DNA of 64,000 nt from Escherichia phage vB_EcoM_SA21RB. The stretch lies in sequence record OL960580; one strand, 5' to 3'. Below the pieces are notes generated by a model, which saw only the letters and a program-made list of their open reading frames with translations, had not been told where the DNA came from and did no database searches. Positions 2,200 through 60,904 of this stretch are shown here, in pieces. A program made the position numbers and the translations under genes. Numbering within the stretch: position 1 is the stretch's first letter; the number at the start of each line of letters is the position of its first letter.

Positions 2200-2403
2200 T
2201 TAATTCATATTGCGTTTAATAACTTCAGCAACTTCTAGTAGTTCATCTTTAGTTGCGGTGTCGGATTGAATTTTATCTCTAATATCCTTAAAGCGGTTTT
2301 TAAACTCTTCGGCTTCTCCCATATCGAAAAAGCGTTGAATGATTCTATATTCTCGATGAACTGCTTTATCAAAAAGTTCTAAATTTACTTTATATGATTT
2401 CAT
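2200..2403 (-). CDS. small hypothetical protein (position of T4 rIIA.1)
   Basis: 67-aa ORF with ATG start, tightly packed between rIIA and gene 39; early promoter just upstream. Confidence 0.6.
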
Positions 2404-2427
2404 TTCAATATCCTCATTTGCCCAATT

Positions 2428-2457
2428 AATTATACCACATCCTTGTGGTAAAGTAAA
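2428..2457 (-). promoter_or_regulatory. T4-type early promoter for the rIIA.1-rIIA unit
   Basis: minus strand reads GTTTAC (-35), about 18 nt, TATAAT (-10); sits between the gene 39 stop and the rIIA.1 start. Confidence 0.55.
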
Positions 2458-4275
2458 CTATTGGCTCATCCATTCTTTACGAAGGTCAGCATTATCTCCC
2501 ATGAGCATTTCAAAAAGCTCTTTCCAGTTCTCAGGAAGTTTAACAACATCATATACTGGGTTTTGAATCATCTCACGATATTCAGATTTTTCCAAAGAGC
2601 CAAGTCCCTTAATATAACGGATGCTATGTTTAGGTAGAGCATCTTTGGCACTCTCATATTCAGTGACTGTATAAAACCATTCTTGTTTTTTACCGACCTG
2701 AGCGATGATTACAGGAGTTTTGACGAAGCGAATTCTTCCTTGTTCAAACAGTTCTGGCCAATTACTAAAAAATCCGAGCAGAGAAGGATAAATGCTCCCT
2801 AGACCATCATGGTCAGCATCAGTCATAATAGCAATATTATGATAATTCAAGTTTTCAGCCTTTTCACCAAGAACTAATCCAGTGATTGCGCAAATATCAA
2901 ACAGTTCTTTGTTTTTAAGCATATCAGCATATGACATACCCCAACTGTTGAGAACTTTACCACGCAATGGATAACCACCATGAAGTTCTTTATCACGAAC
3001 ATCAATAAGATATCCGATAGCAGAATCACCCTCAGTCAAGAAAAGAGTCGTGTCAGCATCTTTACCACAAAGATTCGCTTTAATATGTTTATGAACCTTA
3101 GCTTTAGAAGCCTTTTTAGCTGCTTTAGTTTCTGCTGCTTTTTCTGCCGCCAATTTACGAGCCAAGGCAGCTTCAATAATTGGCATTAAAATTGCTTCAT
3201 TATTTAAAATAGCGCGTGAAATCTTTTTAGCATCAAGCTGAATATGACTACGAATTTCACCAAATGGAGAAGTCAAACGCTCTTTAGTCTGAGAATCAAA
3301 TCGCATGTTTTTCATATCACGAACAAACATAACGATAGTCAAACATTCTTTAACACGTGCTTTAGTTACATCAATTTTGAACTTACGTTTGATTTGTGGA
3401 ATAAGGTCTTCACAAATATCATCCATAACACAGTCAATGTGATGACCACCATTCTTAGTATGAATGTTATTGACGTATGTTAATTGACGAAAACCATCCG
3501 GTGAACGACCAACCGCAATAGAACAATTTTCTTGTTCTTGAACAATAGCATGCTCATCATATTGGCGTGCATATTTCTTAAAATTACCCTGAACCTTTTT
3601 ACCGTTAAAGGTAAATTGAATATCAGGATAAACTACTGCAAGTGTCTGGAGACGATCTAGTGTAATGTCAAGATAAACCTGAGATAGCTCATTAGTTTCA
3701 AATGACATAAAATCAGGAATGAAAGTAACACGAGTTCCTTTCCATTTTCCAGGAATATCTTCCCATGATTTATTTTCCATGCCATTTGAACAACGAACTA
3801 CAATATTATTTTGACCGTCGCCAGTTTCACCGACAAACATCACAGAAAAAATGTTAGTTAAACTAGAACCAACACCGTTCATACCGCCAGTGACGCGTTC
3901 TTTGTCATCACCAAAGTTACCACCTGCTTTTGGAATAGTCCAAGCTGCAACAGGACCAGGAATTTCTTCACCAGTAGGTGTTTTAACCATCGCTTGTGGA
4001 ATACCACGACCGTTATCTTCAACTGTTACTTGATTGTTTTTAATAGTAACATTAATTTTATTCGCGAATTTAAACTTAGTACGAATACCTTCATCTACTG
4101 AGTTATCGATAATTTCATCAATAAGCTTAACAAGACCAGGTACATACTGAACACTTTCCCATTTACCAAACAGAAAGCGCTCATGCATTTCATTAGCAGA
4201 AGAACCAATGTACATGCCGCTACGCTTTTTGATATGTTCAATATCGCTCAGAATTTTAATTTCATTCTTAATCAT
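2458..4275 (-). CDS. 39: DNA topoisomerase II large subunit, single uninterrupted ORF covering the T4 gp39 and gp60 regions
   Basis: ORF track starts at GTG 4278; next codon is ATG 4275 with GAGGA SD, giving 605 aa; GyrB-like ATPase N-terminus; C-terminus NIAIMTDADHDGLGSIYPSLLGFF...RKEWMSQ matches my memory of T4 gp60. Confidence 0.9.
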   Translation of the reverse strand: MIKNEIKILSDIEHIKKRSGMYIGSSANEMHERFLFGKWESVQYVPGLVKLIDEIIDNSVDEGIRTKFKFANKINVTIKNNQVTVEDNGRGIPQAMVKTPTGEEIPGPVAAWTIPKAGGNFGDDKERVTGGMNGVGSSLTNIFSVMFVGETGDGQNNIVVRCSNGMENKSWEDIPGKWKGTRVTFIPDFMSFETNELSQVYLDITLDRLQTLAVVYPDIQFTFNGKKVQGNFKKYARQYDEHAIVQEQENCSIAVGRSPDGFRQLTYVNNIHTKNGGHHIDCVMDDICEDLIPQIKRKFKIDVTKARVKECLTIVMFVRDMKNMRFDSQTKERLTSPFGEIRSHIQLDAKKISRAILNNEAILMPIIEAALARKLAAEKAAETKAAKKASKAKVHKHIKANLCGKDADTTLFLTEGDSAIGYLIDVRDKELHGGYPLRGKVLNSWGMSYADMLKNKELFDICAITGLVLGEKAENLNYHNIAIMTDADHDGLGSIYPSLLGFFSNWPELFEQGRIRFVKTPVIIAQVGKKQEWFYTVTEYESAKDALPKHSIRYIKGLGSLEKSEYREMIQNPVYDVVKLPENWKELFEMLMGDNADLRKEWMSQ

Positions 4276-4328: not shown

Positions 4329-4345
4329 AAGGCCCGAAGGCCTTT
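4328..4345 (-). terminator. C(UUCG)G tetraloop hairpin after the lipoprotein gene
   Basis: minus-strand RNA GGCC-UUCG-GGCC immediately 3' of the stop at 4345; weak U tract. Confidence 0.4.
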
Positions 4346-4605
4346 TATTTAAAACGGATAGTCGAATCCTTGAAGAATAGACCAGAACATACGGTTCCTT
4401 CTACTTTCTGCCCGGTAGGTCCAATAGCACGAAATCCAGTATGTTGGAAATCATTTTCAGAGCAACCGAACCAATTGTATCCAGTGATTTCAATATTAGT
4501 AAAACCACTTGAAGACAAAACTTTGGTTGCATTATCAGCATCAGTACATCCTGCTAAAGACACTGCTAATACTAATGCTGCGATAGAACGATTAATATAT
4601 TTCAT
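4345..4605 (-). CDS. small lipoprotein
   Basis: ORF track start is TTG at 4617; in-frame ATG at 4605 gives 86 aa MKYINRSIAALVLAVSLAGC with lipobox LAGC. Confidence 0.55.
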   Translation of the reverse strand: MKYINRSIAALVLAVSLAGCTDADNATKVLSSSGFTNIEITGYNWFGCSENDFQHTGFRAIGPTGQKVEGTVCSGLFFKDSTIRFK

Positions 4606-19263: not shown

Positions 19264-19557
19264 TTATTCACCTGTGATTTCGGTTACGATATTTTTGTTA
19301 TTAAAGTTTTTATCGCAATACAGAACATAATTATACTGCATTACACCACCAGACTTAAGTTGTTTTTGTACTTCAGCTTTCATTTCAGGACGATCACGCT
19401 CAACGATATTCATAATATCCGCTTCAATTTGAGTTTCAACTTCAGTCTGATCCGCAGTCATAGACCATTCGCACAAATCTTTATCATATCCTGCCATAGC
19501 AGGCTGAGCAGCACAAGAAGCCAAAGTAAAAATTGTAGCAAAGATAAATTTTTTCAT
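19264..19557 (-). CDS. sp: Spackle periplasmic protein (superinfection exclusion)
   Basis: 97 aa with signal peptide; GAGGAG SD; length and position (between 61 and 41) as in T4. Confidence 0.75.
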   Translation of the reverse strand: MKKFIFATIFTLASCAAQPAMAGYDKDLCEWSMTADQTEVETQIEADIMNIVERDRPEMKAEVQKQLKSGGVMQYNYVLYCDKNFNNKNIVTEITGE

Positions 19558-25142: not shown

Positions 25143-25523
25143 TCACTTAGTCAAATTTTTTACACATGAATTATAAGAATTTACTACATACTCCATCGGA
25201 GCATTTTTACCGGTACGCCATTGGTAATTATTAGCCCAATTTGCCCAAAGTTCAGCACAGTAGTTTTCAATTTTTTCTTCACGCGTAATCACATCTGAAT
25301 TACGATATGCTTGTGCAGATTCATCTGGACGAATAGCTTCGTCAAAATTCGCCTGCATTTGTTCTACTGTCTGTTTTGGAGCCTCTTTATAACACTTGAC
25401 GTTAGGATTATAAAATTTGCTTGAACAGTTTACAATTTTTCCTACATCAGACTGATTTACTACTGGTCCTTGAGCTACACATCCAGTAAGACCCAATGCA
25501 ATAACCAAAATAGCGATTTTCAT
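25143..25523 (-). CDS. lipoprotein
   Basis: 126 aa; MKIAILVIALGLTGC lipobox. Confidence 0.55.
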   Translation of the reverse strand: MKIAILVIALGLTGCVAQGPVVNQSDVGKIVNCSSKFYNPNVKCYKEAPKQTVEQMQANFDEAIRPDESAQAYRNSDVITREEKIENYCAELWANWANNYQWRTGKNAPMEYVVNSYNSCVKNLTK

Positions 25524-40587: not shown

Positions 40588-40803
40588 TTAAGCCTTTTTA
40601 TCAAGAACAGAATTCAGCTTGTTAGTAATTTTATCCAGACGCTCATTAAACTCACTAGAAGATAAGCCCTTTTCTGGAGAAATTAAACTAATAACGAAAA
40701 ATATAGCAATAAAAGGAATAAGGAAAATAGCTCCAACTGCCATAAACAGAAAGAATGTTACAGTTGTAAGAAAATCAGCTAAACCTTTACGAAATTTATA
40801 CAT
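40588..40803 (-). CDS. small membrane protein
   Basis: 71 aa with one long hydrophobic segment. Confidence 0.5.
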   Translation of the reverse strand: MYKFRKGLADFLTTVTFFLFMAVGAIFLIPFIAIFFVISLISPEKGLSSSEFNERLDKITNKLNSVLDKKA

Positions 40804-48893: not shown

Positions 48894-49820
48894 TTAAGAT
48901 TTAAGTAAATCGACAATTTTAATTAACTTTTCACGCTCAGATTTAGCTTTACTACTCAATCCAGATAGTCTGAAAATTTCATCGTCATATTGTTGAATAG
49001 AAATATTCAGCTCTTCAATCTGCTTATTAAAATAATCAATTTGTTCAGAATGTTTTTCGTTACTACGAACTGGTACAGGTTTTGTAGGCAATGTAGTTGA
49101 ACTGGATTCATTCGGGCGATAAATTAAAATACAACTTGAACCAATAGGGCATTTTGCACCAGATGAATATTCTAATGTTCCAGCTTCTTTTAAAACTTCA
49201 AAAGCTAAACAGAGATGATGCCCCATATTAACATAATCTGTAGAGTGAGCTCTGATGTAATAATCATCTCCACGAATACTAAATTTAAAGCATTTAAGGT
49301 CTTCTGTATTATTGGTCTTAAAAATCATTTGTTTATCTAGACCTTTAGCTAATCGAGCGCCTAATGCTAATAATCGTCGTTGATTTTCCCACAAATCTGC
49401 AATCATTTGGTCGAATGATAATTTCGGCATTAGTCGACCATAAAGGTCATATCCTTTATTATAATTACGAAGGATTTCACTCGCGTTAATACGAGACAAC
49501 GCTCCAATTTTATTAAGGGCTTTCATAATGCGATTAGATAAACTCATTCCAGATCCATTTGTTCGCTGTAAATGTTTTTCTAATCCAAATCCAATATCAA
49601 CTTTAAACTTATCTAAAATTTCAGCATGAACATCTCTGTCGATAACATTCAAATCCAAAGTTGGGTTAAATCTGTGAAAAAATTTATCTGGCTCTCCACG
49701 ACGAAGTACAGTCCATTCATTCATCATTTTTTTATTAACTAATGATTTAATTACTGCATTGACATTATTAATTACTACTGACATATTTTCCTCACTCAAT
49801 TTCAATTTTACTAAATACAC
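48894..49820 (-). CDS. coiled-coil paralogue array member 4
   Basis: 308 aa; central WENQRRLLALGARLAKGL segment; C-terminal coiled coil. Confidence 0.6.
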   Translation of the reverse strand: MYLVKLKLSEENMSVVINNVNAVIKSLVNKKMMNEWTVLRRGEPDKFFHRFNPTLDLNVIDRDVHAEILDKFKVDIGFGLEKHLQRTNGSGMSLSNRIMKALNKIGALSRINASEILRNYNKGYDLYGRLMPKLSFDQMIADLWENQRRLLALGARLAKGLDKQMIFKTNNTEDLKCFKFSIRGDDYYIRAHSTDYVNMGHHLCLAFEVLKEAGTLEYSSGAKCPIGSSCILIYRPNESSSTTLPTKPVPVRSNEKHSEQIDYFNKQIEELNISIQQYDDEIFRLSGLSSKAKSEREKLIKIVDLLKS

Positions 49821-50199
49821 AGAATATGATTGAACAGACTACATAAGCGCCACACACGGATTGAACTAATACCATCCCAAAGAACCAAACAATATTATCA
49901 AACAGTGTCTGTTTTACGTCGAAAGGACGTAAACTTACAGTAATATTATCACCTTTTTCTATTGAAGAATACATCTCTGGGGAAATATATTCACTAAATC
50001 TATAACCGTCTTTGAGTTCATATACGGCAATAAACGATAAACTAGACCCCTTTCCTTGTGTTCCTGTAATAGTATTAACTACAGTAACATCATAATCTTT
50101 ATAGTGCATATAATCATTAATTGCGTAATAACCATATGCAACTACTACACATAAACAACATATCAATAAATTCAATCTTTTAATTATCAACTGTTTCAT
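49792..50199 (-). CDS. membrane protein
   Basis: 135 aa with N- and C-terminal hydrophobic helices. Confidence 0.5.
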   Translation of the reverse strand: MKQLIIKRLNLLICCLCVVVAYGYYAINDYMHYKDYDVTVVNTITGTQGKGSSLSFIAVYELKDGYRFSEYISPEMYSSIEKGDNITVSLRPFDVKQTLFDNIVWFFGMVLVQSVCGAYVVCSIIFCVFSKIEIE

Positions 50200-56166: not shown

Positions 56167-56553
56167 TTATTCGAGGGAAAGAAGATACTTACTCTGGTAA
56201 AACATCCCAGTAATATCATCTATCGTGCTTTGAATGGCTGGAGGCATTTCTTTATAAATGCTGTTAGATTGGTCTAGTATGCGATCAATCATTTTAATTG
56301 TGTCGGTAGGAAGTTTACTGGCATCTGGAATTGAAGGCGTGTATTTTCTACCAGAATACCCCAAATATTGCTCACCAAATTTATCAATCAAATCTGGCAA
56401 CTCGGAGAAAATAAAATCGTATGCTTTGTGTCTAGCATAACTTTTAGTTTCAAAATGTGCAGAATGAAAATAAGCTTGTGCAGCCATTAATAAACCTAAG
56501 TATTCATCTGCCTTTGAAGGTTTTCCACTTTGTGAAAAGTCGCTGAATTTCAT
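56167..56553 (-). CDS. hypothetical protein (position of T4 rI.-1)
   Basis: 128 aa immediately downstream of rI. Confidence 0.55.
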
Positions 56554-56843
56554 TCAGTCTCCAATTTAATTTTCATAATTCTAGCGTATGATTGTGCCAT
56601 CTCCGCGCCTCGCTCTATACATTCAAAATCAGAAGAGCACGGGTCATTTTTATAGGTCGTTCTCATAAAACTATAGAATTGTTCAGACGATTCTACACTT
56701 TTATTTTCAAAAAGTGTATAAACGTGCCTAATACCAGATTCCATAAATTTATCAAAATGAGGATCGACATTCGCTTCAATCGATGGAGATAAAACAAATG
56801 ACAATCCTAGCATGGCAAAAAGTGCCGTTGCTTTTAAGGCCAT
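56550..56843 (-). CDS. rI: lysis inhibition regulator RI
   Basis: 97 aa MALKATALFAMLGLSFVLSPSIEANVDPHF... matches my memory of T4 RI; signal-anchor. Confidence 0.88.
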   Translation of the reverse strand: MALKATALFAMLGLSFVLSPSIEANVDPHFDKFMESGIRHVYTLFENKSVESSEQFYSFMRTTYKNDPCSSDFECIERGAEMAQSYARIMKIKLETE

Positions 56844-58280: not shown

Positions 58281-58468
58281 TATTCTTCTACATGTTGTTT
58301 ACGACCTTTCTTATCAATAAAGGTATATTCAACGAATGTTCCAATGTAGTCTTTATCTACATCATGTGGACTATTAATTGGACATTTAGTGCGGCAAATG
58401 CGTTCCCATTGACGAATAATTACTGCTTTGTTTTTAGGATCAAACGGATGTGGGTAATGTACTTTCAT
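58256..58468 (-). CDS. small hypothetical protein
   Basis: 70 aa. Confidence 0.45.
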   Translation of the reverse strand: MKVHYPHPFDPKNKAVIIRQWERICRTKCPINSPHDVDKDYIGTFVEYTFIDKKGRKQHVEEYCLKVTWL

Positions 58469-58919
58469 AATCCACCACTATTAAATCAATATCAGGAGTA
58501 AACATGTCGATTAATTTAGAAACCTTATCCCAATCACCGCCAGCAATACCACAACCTATGCGTGGAATGTAAATTACTGGTTTAAACAAAAGGGTTTCTG
58601 CCTGTAGATTTAATTCTATCATGCAGTTTACTAAAGCACCATAATCAAGATTAGGACCTGGTTCGTATTGCGTATACAGGTTATAGCATATACCAAATCC
58701 CGTAGGACTATGTTTAAAAACAATAGACATATCGCCTAATTTATCACGAGAACCGTACTCAGTAGTGGTTTTATCTATTTCTAAAATTTTGGGATAGGCT
58801 CTTGCTAATTGACCCGCTACGCCTGAACCCATAGTATGAAAACAATTGCACCCGTGCGCAATAATATTACCTTGAAGAAATAGGGCGACAATATCGCCCT
58901 TGATATATTTTACAATCAT
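58440..58919 (-). CDS. macro-domain-like protein
   Basis: 159 aa; GDIV...HGCNCFHTMGSGVAGQL and IPRIGCGIAGGDW resemble the two glycine-rich loops of macro domains. Confidence 0.55.
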   Translation of the reverse strand: MIVKYIKGDIVALFLQGNIIAHGCNCFHTMGSGVAGQLARAYPKILEIDKTTTEYGSRDKLGDMSIVFKHSPTGFGICYNLYTQYEPGPNLDYGALVNCMIELNLQAETLLFKPVIYIPRIGCGIAGGDWDKVSKLIDMFTPDIDLIVVDYESTLPTSV

Positions 58920-59257
58920 CTAGTACTCAATCCTCGATTATAAGAATCTACCAAACGGTCAACCATTGAATGACAAGCGGCTTTATCTTTTTCCTCCGCA
59001 ACTGAACATTCTAGGGTATTCCACTTTTTAGCATATCGTTTTAACAATGTATCATTTTTGTATCTGCTTGATTTATCTCTTTCTCCGTCTTTATATGCAT
59101 ATATTAATTTCTGTGCAAATTCAGCTTGGCATGCTTTATTTTTCCCGCAATAATCCGCTGCAGTACGGTTTACATACTCTCTAATTTCAGTATATGATGT
59201 ATCTGCTAACGCAGAAAATGAAATTAATCCTATACATAAAACCAAAATTTTAGTCAT
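58916..59257 (-). CDS. secreted small protein
   Basis: 113 aa; signal peptide MTKILVLCIGLISFSALA; four Cys. Confidence 0.55.
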   Translation of the reverse strand: MTKILVLCIGLISFSALADTSYTEIREYVNRTAADYCGKNKACQAEFAQKLIYAYKDGERDKSSRYKNDTLLKRYAKKWNTLECSVAEEKDKAACHSMVDRLVDSYNRGLSTR

Positions 59258-59795
59258 TTACTATTTCCAAAAGTTTATTATTTTTAAGGTAATTAGCCTT
59301 TTCTAGGACTTCAGAAGCATATTTAGAACCTGCTTTAACATTCCATCCCGAATTATAAGAGGATATTGCTTTTCTTATATCGCCCTTATGTATATTTAAC
59401 CAATAAGAAAGTTCAATGTACGCCCAGGAAGCTGAATTGGATCGTTTATTCAACATTCTTTTTATTTCAGCATCGGTCATATTATAACCAAGTTCCTTAA
59501 CTCTTGCTCGCATAGTAGGCAAATAATTTTGGAACATTCCATAAGCGTGATGCTTTGGTTTAGATTTTAAATTAACTCCGCCAGAGCTTTCTTGCCATAA
59601 AATAGCAGCCATTATATGACCTAATCCGCTCTTGTGGATATTTTTGTGTGTTTTATATTTTCCATCCTTAGAAAATTGTTCCCCGAATTGATACGCGTAA
59701 CGCATGTTATCGAGTTGGACATTACTGAAAGTATGCTCGGAGCTATGTGCCATCATTGAAATGGCCAATAGACCAGCGAGTAGTGCTTTTCTCAT
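59250..59795 (-). CDS. secreted lytic-transglycosylase-like protein
   Basis: 181 aa; signal peptide; LWQESSGG followed by Y..GMFQ, SLT-like. Confidence 0.5.
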   Translation of the reverse strand: MRKALLAGLLAISMMAHSSEHTFSNVQLDNMRYAYQFGEQFSKDGKYKTHKNIHKSGLGHIMAAILWQESSGGVNLKSKPKHHAYGMFQNYLPTMRARVKELGYNMTDAEIKRMLNKRSNSASWAYIELSYWLNIHKGDIRKAISSYNSGWNVKAGSKYASEVLEKANYLKNNKLLEIVND

Positions 59796-59802
59796 GCTTA
59801 CC

Positions 59803-60264
59803 TCATTGAGTTTTAATTACTGCTTTAGAAGCCTTTCCTGGTAAACGACGACTGTTAATAATTGCCATCCTGCATTGAAGCGACGGGTCTTTGAACTTCG
59901 CATTAGGTTTACAAACTGTAAATCCAAGCCAAAGATTTCCATCTGTGATTTCTAAACGTCCAGGACGATATTCAACCCCATCAATAAAATCCTCGTCAAT
60001 GTCAGGACGAGGAGGCATACTCAGGAATTCATTAACTTCTAAAACATGGTCTTTTATTTTATGGAATAATTCAAAAACGTATGTCTCATCAATCTCCCGT
60101 TGAATTGCACGATCAAGAAGATGTTGAGAATATTTTAGATGAAACGATGAGACCCCTGCTGCTTTTGATGCCTCACGAATCTCATTGTTAATTTGACGAA
60201 ACTCCGACTCAAAGTGACGACGAAGCTTATTTCGACGGATAAAAACTTCTGTGTTGATAGTCAT
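59803..60264 (-). CDS. regB: RegB endoribonuclease
   Basis: 153 aa MTINTEVFIRRNKLRRHFESEF...; length and neighbourhood as in T4. Confidence 0.85.
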   Translation of the reverse strand: MTINTEVFIRRNKLRRHFESEFRQINNEIREASKAAGVSSFHLKYSQHLLDRAIQREIDETYVFELFHKIKDHVLEVNEFLSMPPRPDIDEDFIDGVEYRPGRLEITDGNLWLGFTVCKPNAKFKDPSLQCRMAIINSRRLPGKASKAVIKTQ

Positions 60265-60291
60265 GTTATTCTCCTCTTAACTGATAGAAAA

Positions 60292-60321
60292 ATTATACCA
60301 CAGTCAAGAGGAAAAGTAAAC
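60292..60321 (-). promoter_or_regulatory. T4-type early promoter for regB
   Basis: minus strand GTTTAC, 18 nt, TATAAT directly upstream of the regB SD and ATG. Confidence 0.5.
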
Positions 60322-60323
60322 AG

Positions 60324-60644
60324 TTATTCTTTAAATCTAATCAATTTATTCATAGACTTTGAAACTTCTGCACGAACCTCATGTAGATTTTTGAGCTGTT
60401 CAAGGCGCTGCGTATAGTAAGCAATTTCATCTTCTTCGAGACAGTCCTGTGAATCTTCTTTAAGATAACGTGCATAGTCCTGGAAAGCGTTACGGATTAC
60501 TTCCTGGAAATCATCAAGACTTTGAATTTTCTTAGGAGCAGCAGATACACGACGAGGGGCAGTATAATACTCATAACCAAACCCTGCACTTAATTGAGCC
60601 ATTAATATTTTTCCTCTGGTTGGAACATTGCACGACAAGCCCAC
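60324..60644 (-). CDS. hypothetical protein
   Basis: 106 aa. Confidence 0.5.
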
Positions 60645-60904
60645 ATACTGGCTTCTTTGAGTTTCGTTTTAGCAATAGTTAACTGATCGAGGCTTTCAGC
60701 ATAATTCTTCGCGAGTTCATCATCTTCACAGCTATCGAATGCTTCCCAGAATTCATCATATAAAGCATCAAAGATAAGTCCTAAACGAACTTCAGCGTCT
60801 TTGATAGCATTCACTTTACCGATTTTCTCTTCAGTATGCGGCTTATAACCTTTAATGTCTTCAATCATATTTGACTTCCTCACCAGTACATAAATCATAT
60901 TCAA
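60602..60904 (-). CDS. hypothetical acidic protein
   Basis: 100 aa; overlaps the neighbour by 43 nt, start uncertain. Confidence 0.45.

Follow-up and report, generated by a model that had tools for sequence, protein, structure and literature searches.

Family-1 lytic transglycosylases such as Slt70, MltD and MltE carry three motifs in a characteristic order, E-S, G-L-M-Q-type and A-Y-N-x-G-type, and it is with these enzymes that one product of a small phage locus, vs.1-vs, invites comparison. The locus lies at positions 58916..59795 of a 64,000-nucleotide stretch of DNA (the window) from Escherichia phage vB_EcoM_SA21RB (sequence record OL960580). In every database, its second product bears the name of the T4 "tau" factor, a protein of ~10 kDa that binds and modifies a cytoplasmic enzyme, valyl-tRNA synthetase (ValRS). 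Two further systems provide functional precedents. Tgl of Kayvirus is encoded by the phage in addition to its main endolysin, with a signal peptide, export through the host Sec pathway and early-like transcription, and its muralytic activity on a Gram-positive envelope has been demonstrated (PMC7150955). Spackle (gp61.3) of T4 is a small, helical, early and Sec-exported periplasmic protein that stoichiometrically binds a muralytic enzyme, the gp5 tail lysozyme (PMC7677548). The features of vs.1 and vs described below tip the balance slightly toward an early, co-transcribed and periplasm-directed pair, in which a murein-cleaving enzyme and a disulfide-stapled partner would tune the host wall.

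The locus consists of two overlapping minus-strand open reading frames (ORFs), vs.1 at 59250..59795 (181 aa) and vs at 58916..59257 (113 aa), exactly where an original prediction, made from the DNA letters alone, had placed two adjacent genes. The 181-aa protein is 100% identical to T4 Vs.1 (NP_049725). The 113-aa protein shares 97% identity with T4 Vs, the "valyl tRNA synthetase modifier" (NP_049724), from which it differs in length solely by a 2-residue deletion in the signal-like segment. By these sequence matches the two ORFs are the T4 genes vs.1 and vs, long catalogued, although the original sequence record of 1986 names them merely ORF 61.4 and ORF 60.9. When a 1.9-kb segment around the region served as query, 719 phage records matched, with a top identity of 99%; the gene order (tk, tk.x ORFs, tk.4, vs, vs.1, regB) is that of T4, and the source phage is T4-like and assigned to Tequatrovirus. 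Since homologous ORFs occur in 2045 phage records for Vs.1, far outside the T4-like phages, and in 795 for Vs, and since both proteins have been detected by mass spectrometry in T4-infected cells, where the genes fall into the early RNA and middle protein classes (PMC9697503 supplement), vs.1 and vs are real genes. Both genes were already known, as was the SLT resemblance of Vs.1, which Nolan et al. reported in 2006 with reference to earlier PSI-BLAST evidence (PMC1524935), and the finding is to this extent mostly a re-discovery. The original prediction stood in its signal-like N-termini and its SLT identity; it overlooked the named T4 genes, the published SLT match and the ValRS label.

The SLT proposal had been based on an ESSGG...Y..GMFQ arrangement in the 181-aa protein, and this is found in Vs.1 as WQESSGGVNLKSKPKHHAYGMFQ at residues 67-89. 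The Pfam SLT profile (PF01464) matches residues 61-154 over its positions 16-101 of 117, scoring 25.1 bits against a gathering cut-off of 21.3 (E 1.4e-5), which is a small margin. In an alignment of 39 relatives, at 40-82% identity, the motifs themselves hold firm. In motif I, E69-S70-S-G-G (59577..59591; minus strand, as for all features within the two genes), E69 is invariant and is the presumed catalytic acid, and S70 is kept in at least 90% of the 39 sequences. Motif II, G86-M-F-Q89 (59529..59540), has invariant G86, F88 and Q89, while Y147, N148 and G150 are invariant in motif III, Y147-N-S-G150 (59346..59357). Vs.1 consequently carries all three motifs of the family-1 lytic transglycosylases, in the right order and spacing. 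The same SLT motifs recur at ~31% identity in gp70 of Det7 (Ackermannviridae) and in gp46 of finno (Felixounavirus), a "putative lysin", both of which begin with signal peptides.

The predicted structure of Vs.1 points in the same direction. The AlphaFold2 (AF2) model, with a predicted local distance difference test (pLDDT) score of 89 and a predicted template-modelling score (pTM) of 0.83, has an all-helical, lysozyme-like fold, as the original prediction of an SLT/lysozyme-like fold anticipated. When the model was compared with the PDB by Foldseek, lytic transglycosylases were retrieved first: the first 18 matches comprise MltD, a GH23 chitinase and Slt, and they are followed by the phi6 P5 lysin, T7 gp16 and Slt70, with structural alignments at 14-16% identity. 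A sequence search of the PDB with the Vs.1 profile gave nothing significant, and the only lysozyme-type matches were goose-type lysozymes, at E 0.33-4.2. Neither Vs.1 nor Vs had a match in NCBIfam. The goose-type alignment covers Vs.1 residues 62-174, including the Y-N-x-G ... Y-A-x-x-V ... A-x-Y-L-K stretch, in which motif III aligns weakly (E 0.33) to the AYNtG...DYsnDVvaRAqwYk of the lysozyme.

Taken with the motifs, the model suggests that Vs.1 is a very divergent, minimal GH23 protein of the murein-cleaving type, and its enzymatic activity would follow from this resemblance. It is like Slt70, MltD and MltE in its Pfam SLT score, in its E-S, G-x-(M/F)-Q and (A/S)-Y-N-x-G motifs, in its predicted fold and in its predicted Sec export. 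It differs from them as a minimal single domain of 163 mature residues that lacks a lipobox, LysM and superhelical domain, and as a phage-encoded, early and very divergent protein known here from sequence and model. Goose-type lysozymes, the GH23 hydrolases, are close to Vs.1 in size (~185 aa), and the alignment of residues 62-174 with them is non-significant. In these hydrolases, the catalytic Glu is followed by auxiliary Asp residues, which are absent from Vs.1; because Vs.1 lacks these extra acidic residues, it is most likely a lytic transglycosylase rather than a hydrolase.

The second claim, that both proteins carry signal peptides, is likewise upheld by their N-termini. Scoring was done with a home-made heuristic for the n-, h- and c-regions, which looks for a positive n-region, an h-region of 8-18 uncharged hydrophobic residues and small residues at -3/-1, and which was run on all 160 ORFs of at least 60 aa in the window. 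Vs.1 begins with MRKALLAGLLAISMMAHS, followed by SEHTF(S), and Vs with MTKILVLCIGLISFSALA, followed by DTSYTE; each of these segments has a positive n-region, an uncharged hydrophobic core and a small-x-small cleavage motif. The predicted signal peptides span residues 1-18 of both proteins, at 59742..59795 in vs.1 and 59204..59257 in vs, and their cleavage would expose SEHTFSNVQLDNMR as the new N-terminal peptide of Vs.1 and DTSYTEIR as that of Vs. The predicted mature forms are 163 aa (18.8 kDa, isoelectric point 9.65) for Vs.1 and 95 aa (11.0 kDa, isoelectric point 8.9) for Vs. With 47.8, Vs has the top score of all window ORFs scored. Vs.1, with 36.5, is level with Spackle (19264..19557; 38.7) and RI (56550..56843; 36.7), two known periplasmic T4 proteins of confirmed identity that served as positive controls. 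The heuristic is crude and non-specific, with cytoplasmic Tk.4 (29.3) and Tk (14.6) appearing as lower-scoring false positives.

A stronger argument for signal peptides than the heuristic score is the evolutionary pattern. A signal-like N-terminus is present in 38 of the 39 Vs.1 relatives (score at least 30) and in 56 of the 57 Vs relatives, both exceptions being truncated gene calls. Both proteins are least conserved over their first ~18 residues, where indels occur, and still the positive-hydrophobic-AxA pattern stays. In Vs, this segment varies in sequence and length across the family yet is always hydrophobic; a drifting but always signal-like N-terminus is the mark of an export signal in use, as distinct from a segment of the folded protein. 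The AF2 models are of low confidence over the N-terminal segments (pLDDT 57 in Vs.1 and ~50 in Vs), as compared with >90 in the protein bodies. In addition, full-length Vs with an N-terminal His tag was found to be insoluble when made in the E. coli cytoplasm (PMC8076793). Vs.1 and Vs are thus both very probable candidates for the periplasm, and the invariant paired cysteines described below, the insolubility of tagged Vs and the low N-terminal model confidence are consistent with export followed by signal peptidase I cleavage. Two other interpretations of the Vs N-terminus were considered and rejected. A signal-less, cytoplasmic 10-kDa isoform made from an internal start would need a start codon, and no in-frame ATG, GTG or TTG was found in vs between codons 6 and 40. 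Vs as a lipoprotein fails in that "LVLC" at residues 5-8 is no lipobox and lies too near the N-terminus. A full-text literature search found no paper discussing a signal peptide in Vs, and the SignalP table in the supplement of Nolan et al. 2006 is limited to novel ORFs, vs and vs.1 not being among them.

The Vs family is small. Vs matches phrog_1256 at E 5e-40, a profile search of 1.84 billion representative proteins gave 8 Vs clusters, and a word-indexed search with a broader Vs profile gave 64 proteins, all 64 of which carry PF26829 ("ValRS_modifier"). A Pfam Cauli_AT match for Vs was dismissed as spurious, the local Pfam copy lacking PF26829. From these searches, the family appears confined to T4-like phages or phage-like contigs of Enterobacterales and Acinetobacter hosts. 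Among 57 aligned Vs sequences, with identities down to 23%, there are only five invariant columns: C37, C43, C84, C95 and G109. The AF2 model is a confident four-helix bundle (pLDDT 94-98 over residues 31-110), with helices at residues 20-37, 41-61, 68-84 and 89-110, and each cysteine pair brackets one hairpin turn. The C37 + C43 pair (C-x5-C; 59129..59149) flanks the loop between helices 1 and 2, while C84 + C95 (58973..59008) flanks the turn between helices 3 and 4. The invariance of the cysteines and the helix boundaries suggest two disulfides, one per helical hairpin. No sequence or fold similarity was found between Vs and Spackle, Ivy, MliC/PliC or PliG. A Spackle-like identity for Vs was specifically rejected, in that profile comparison matched nothing except the signal peptide and Spackle was absent among the structural neighbours of Vs.

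Two subtypes of Vs can be distinguished. In the T4 type, of ~113-119 aa, the second cysteine pair is spaced C-x10-C; in a short type, of ~106-109 aa, the spacing is C-x9-C and the protein ends in GLLDR or GLT. Besides Acinetobacter phages, the short type is carried by Salmonella S16-like and Klebsiella phages with a Vs.1 that closely resembles the T4 protein. This distribution suggests either cassette exchange or an accelerated evolution of vs that is independent of vs.1.

Wherever vs is present among the 10 genomes and contigs examined, it directly follows the 3' end of vs.1, the two genes being -8 to +2 nt apart. The sample included T4, Pectobacterium phage PM2, JS10, Klebsiella phage kv_tblp8, VR7, Acinetobacter phage Mokit and three metagenomic or genomic contigs. 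In Mokit, the ORF downstream of vs.1 is a Vs family member, and in the three contigs the gene upstream of vs is a Vs.1 homologue, at 38-74% identity. The flanks of the pair vary, with Acinetobacter-type loci lacking regB upstream and having genes after vs without a Macro-domain match. Among Acinetobacter phage records, Vs.1 is found in 69 and Vs in 69. Moreover, fifteen pairs of Vs.1 and Vs clusters have equal longest contigs, some of only 2.5-4 kb, and these are taken to mean the same contig. In the window itself, the vs.1 stop and the vs start overlap by 8 nt at 59250..59257 (GTA AAT GAC TAA / ATG), an arrangement that suggests translational coupling.

The pair is also found near genes of lysis control. 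The antiholin gene rI is three genes from vs.1/vs in Acinetobacter phages and ~2.4 kb from vs.1 in both the window and T4. In Felixounavirus finno, the Vs.1 homologue annotated as a "putative lysin" adjoins rIIA/rIIB and is three genes from an i-spanin. Such closeness lends mild support to the idea, voiced in the original prediction, of a role in lysis timing or the envelope. For the roles proposed there, which were wall remodelling, superinfection exclusion and lysis timing, the support is circumstantial and comes from this gene proximity and from a shared fitness phenotype described below. In Aeromonas phage 31, which has vs.1 without vs, two ORFs fill the interval between vs.1 and tk.4: one of 75 aa that lacks a signal peptide, and one of 146 aa (2356..2796) that encodes a predicted lipoprotein. 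The lipoprotein may be a non-homologous envelope protein in the vs position.

Published transposon data from T4 provide the best functional evidence for joint action, namely a fitness pattern that the adjacent genes vs and vs.1 share and that their neighbours lack. In the HIDEN-SEQ preprint (10.1101/2025.11.20.689424), no T4 gene was more depleted than vs in M9-glucose as compared with LB medium, a result confirmed by deletion, and the authors explain the need for vs in M9 through ValRS. In the supplementary Data S8 of that study, mean reads per site for vs fall from 26.6 in LB to 5.0 in M9 (log2 fold change -2.19; p <0.00001, adjusted <0.00001), and those for vs.1 from 22.6 to 11.9 (-0.87; p 0.0055, adjusted 0.155). 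The corresponding values are 178.6 and 403.0 for regB (+1.17; p 0.049, adjusted 0.80), 289.6 and 275.0 for tk.4 (-0.07; p 0.86, adjusted 1.0), and 652.1 and 626.2 for vs.3 (-0.06; p 0.91, adjusted 1.0). Already in LB, insertions in vs and vs.1 are ~10-fold rarer than in neighbour genes, and a second sheet gives 8.9 for vs and 5.1 for vs.1 as compared with 248 for tk.4. The transposon lacks a terminator, and the authors argue that polar effects are not widespread (10.1101/2025.11.20.689424). Insertions in regB are enriched in M9, opposite to those in the downstream vs.1 and vs, which argues against the phenotype of the two genes being a simple polar effect of upstream insertions.

On the basis of these observations, a working model can be outlined. 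vs.1 and vs would be co-transcribed early and probably translationally coupled, and both products would leave via the Sec pathway to the periplasm. Mature Vs.1 would be a 163-residue basic enzyme of the SLT/goose-lysozyme (GH23) fold, in which Glu69 cleaves the MurNAc-GlcNAc bond of host murein, most likely by lytic transglycosylase chemistry. Mature Vs would be a four-helix bundle of 95 residues, stapled by two disulfides, one in each helical hairpin. Sharing compartment and pathway with Vs.1, it would most likely serve that enzyme as stoichiometric partner or regulator. The two together could adjust the wall of the infected cell before lysis, with a fitness benefit that is larger in minimal medium. 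This last part, Vs as partner or regulator and the pair as a tuner of the wall, is less certain than the export and identity of the proteins. The direction of regulation could run either way, as the stronger M9 defect of vs hints that Vs restrains the enzyme and the equal LB defects hint at cooperation. An antitoxin-like inhibition of a toxic Vs.1 by Vs was not adopted, with the LB cost of vs.1 insertions being equal to that of vs.

By analogy, Spackle would be the obvious functional model for the action of Vs on Vs.1 or on an incoming enzyme. Spackle differs from Vs in having no sequence or profile similarity to it beyond the signal peptide, and its gene, sp, is not adjacent to the gene of its target, whereas vs always abuts vs.1. 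For Vs.1, a parallel is offered by Tgl of the staphylococcal kayviruses, which differs in acting on a Gram-positive envelope, in its demonstrated muralytic activity and in having no Vs-like partner.

A number of points weigh against a periplasmic vs.1-vs pair. Alleles of vs alter phage growth on valS(ts) hosts, which suggests cytoplasmic action, and the minimal-medium phenotype of vs also suits a role in aminoacylation. The standing annotation is that Vs binds cytoplasmic ValRS (Muller and Marchin 1975, 1977, as cited in PMC8076793). The signal-peptide call depends on a home-made heuristic and conservation patterns, the fold of Vs has no informative structural neighbour, and the Foldseek matches of Vs.1 reach E values of only 7e-3 or weaker (~1e-2) and template-modelling scores of ~0.45-0.53, with probabilities to 1.00. 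Dense packing with overlapping stops and starts is usual for T4 early genes, so that the vs.1/vs overlap by itself carries little weight, and the transposon phenotype of vs.1 could partly reflect lost translational coupling to vs. Aeromonas phage 31, Ackermannviridae (Det7) and Felixounavirus have Vs.1 but lack Vs. Vs also diverges faster than Vs.1 and discordantly so, as in CGG4-1, where identity to the window proteins is 74% for Vs.1 and 32% for Vs. Contact between Vs and Vs.1 is hypothetical. Much of this fits the textbook account, in which Vs, as the cytoplasmic 10-kDa "tau" factor, binds and stabilises host ValRS, its N-terminus not or only partly used for export, and Vs.1 is an independent periplasmic enzyme whose adjacency reflects mere dense packing. 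This account draws on the universal database annotation (including PF26829 and phrog_1256), on the biochemical literature cited in PMC8076793, on the mapping of the strongest T4 minimal-medium defect to vs, as would suit a role in amino-acid and tRNA economy, and on the separate occurrence and very different evolutionary rates of the two proteins.

Nevertheless, the ValRS label is in tension with the predicted export of Vs, whose ORF product has the sequence hallmarks of an exported, disulfide-bonded protein, and the textbook account, though a serious rival, seems rather unlikely for several reasons. The Vs N-terminus stays signal-like in 56 of 57 relatives despite sequence drift, four invariant cysteines sit at the hairpin turns, and vs has no alternative start. 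Between T4 and S16-like Vs (~30% identity), conservation is limited to the cysteines and a few core residues, though the host ValRS is near-identical. Mature Vs, at 11.0 kDa, is nearer to the 10-kDa factor than are the precursors of 12.9-13.1 kDa, and a match of this kind would imply processing by signal peptidase. Vs is also insoluble in the cytoplasm when its N-terminus is blocked (PMC8076793). The 1986 sequence record has only "ORF 60.9", with no link to the ValRS factor, and no paper tying the genetic locus vs to ORF 60.9 was found in the literature search, the primary papers on the vs assignment lying outside it. It is conceivable, if only as a tentative proposal, that the ValRS label does not describe the primary role of Vs at all. 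Vs would instead be a Sec-exported, disulfide-stapled periplasmic protein that forms with Vs.1 a conserved two-gene module spanning T4-like phages of Enterobacterales and Acinetobacter. On the same tentative footing, ORF 60.9 would have been mis-assigned to vs, or the ValRS association would arise only once cells are broken open, and the true job of the pair would be the control of murein cleavage in the infected cell, mattering most in nutrient-poor medium.

Two further possibilities concern Vs.1. Instead of serving early in wall remodelling or exclusion, it might be an auxiliary lysis enzyme, held in check in the periplasm, possibly by Vs, until holin triggering and then aiding T4 lysozyme in destroying the wall, much as Kayvirus Tgl or SAR endolysins do. 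The location of its homologues near rI, rIIA/rIIB and an i-spanin would be in keeping with this, as would the harder effect of M9 on vs than on vs.1 mutants, which is expected if Vs restrains Vs.1; a precedent exists in Kayvirus Tgl, which bears a signal peptide, is transcribed in an early-like manner and cooperates with the main endolysin (PMC7150955). Such a role is improbable, given that Vs shows no resemblance to known lysozyme inhibitors or Spackle, that the LB cost is equal for vs.1 and vs insertions, unlike the outcome of a simple enzyme-plus-inhibitor model, and that vs.1 is non-essential and T4 lysis is fully explained, in genetic terms, by e, t and the spanins. Finally, Vs.1 could be a non-catalytic murein binder or act on another glycan, its SLT resemblance being a relic of the fold. 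A Pfam score barely above threshold, the non-significant PDB sequence matches, the modest Foldseek values given above and the GH23 chitinase among the close structural matches all leave room for this. The catalytic Glu-Ser and the two other motifs are kept down to 30-40% identity, including in Ackermannviridae and Felixounavirus, which is hard to explain without catalysis and makes a mere relic highly improbable. No paper on the function of Vs.1 beyond the Pfam match was found in the full-text search. The preferred reading of vs.1 and vs as an early periplasmic pair acting on murein keeps a slight advantage, with support from conserved signals, invariant motifs and cysteines, conserved adjacency and a shared mutant phenotype.

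The neighbourhood of the pair is otherwise that of T4. Upstream lies the regB endoribonuclease gene (59803..60264, minus strand; Pfam REGB_T4, 230 bits), preceded by a sigma-70-type early-promoter-like site, TTTACT-17-TATAAT with TG (60292..60320, minus strand), which is a consensus match only and the likely start of a regB-vs.1-vs-tk.4 early transcript. Promoter-like sites are not enriched in the region (9 observed, 9.7 expected from shuffles). Downstream, tk.4 (58440..58919, minus strand; Pfam Macro, 32 bits) overlaps the vs stop by 4 nt and encodes a macrodomain protein of 159 aa, as compared with 155 aa in T4. This product has been renamed AdfM, an anti-DarT2 factor that shields T4 from the DarTG2 defence (preprint 10.1101/2025.11.20.689424). 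Just downstream of vs, inside the 5' end of tk.4, a perfect 8-bp-stem hairpin (AGGGCGAT-ATT-GTCGCCCT) with a T-rich tail and a second hairpin are found at 58845..58900 (both strands), and terminator-like sites are enriched in 58300..60700, with 6 observed and 1.4 expected from shuffles. The window also contains further small ORFs with strong signal- or anchor-like N-termini, at 4345..4605, 25143..25523, 49792..50199 and 40588..40803 (all minus strand), belonging to phrog_902, 1754, 2547 and 1930, families of unknown function. Two of the four have canonical lipoboxes (LAGC, LTGC), and together with Spackle and RI they make up an unusually rich set of envelope-directed small proteins.

Names attached to the two proteins have drifted in public phage genomes. 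Vs is often given as "valyl-tRNA synthetase", with "modifier" lost. Homologues of Vs.1 are variously called "endoribonuclease", "site-specific RNA endonuclease" and "putative RegB protein", names that have apparently bled over from regB, and elsewhere "C-type lysozyme/alpha-lactalbumin family protein", "putative lysin" or "transglycosylase SLT domain protein".

The lasting interest of the locus is that the name of Vs disagrees with what its sequence features suggest. If Vs is periplasmic and works with Vs.1, the M9 phenotype would call for an envelope-based explanation, and hundreds of phage genomes would carry a misleading ValRS annotation copied from one to the next. In T4, the pair would then join Spackle and Imm/RI as a third early system of the periplasm.

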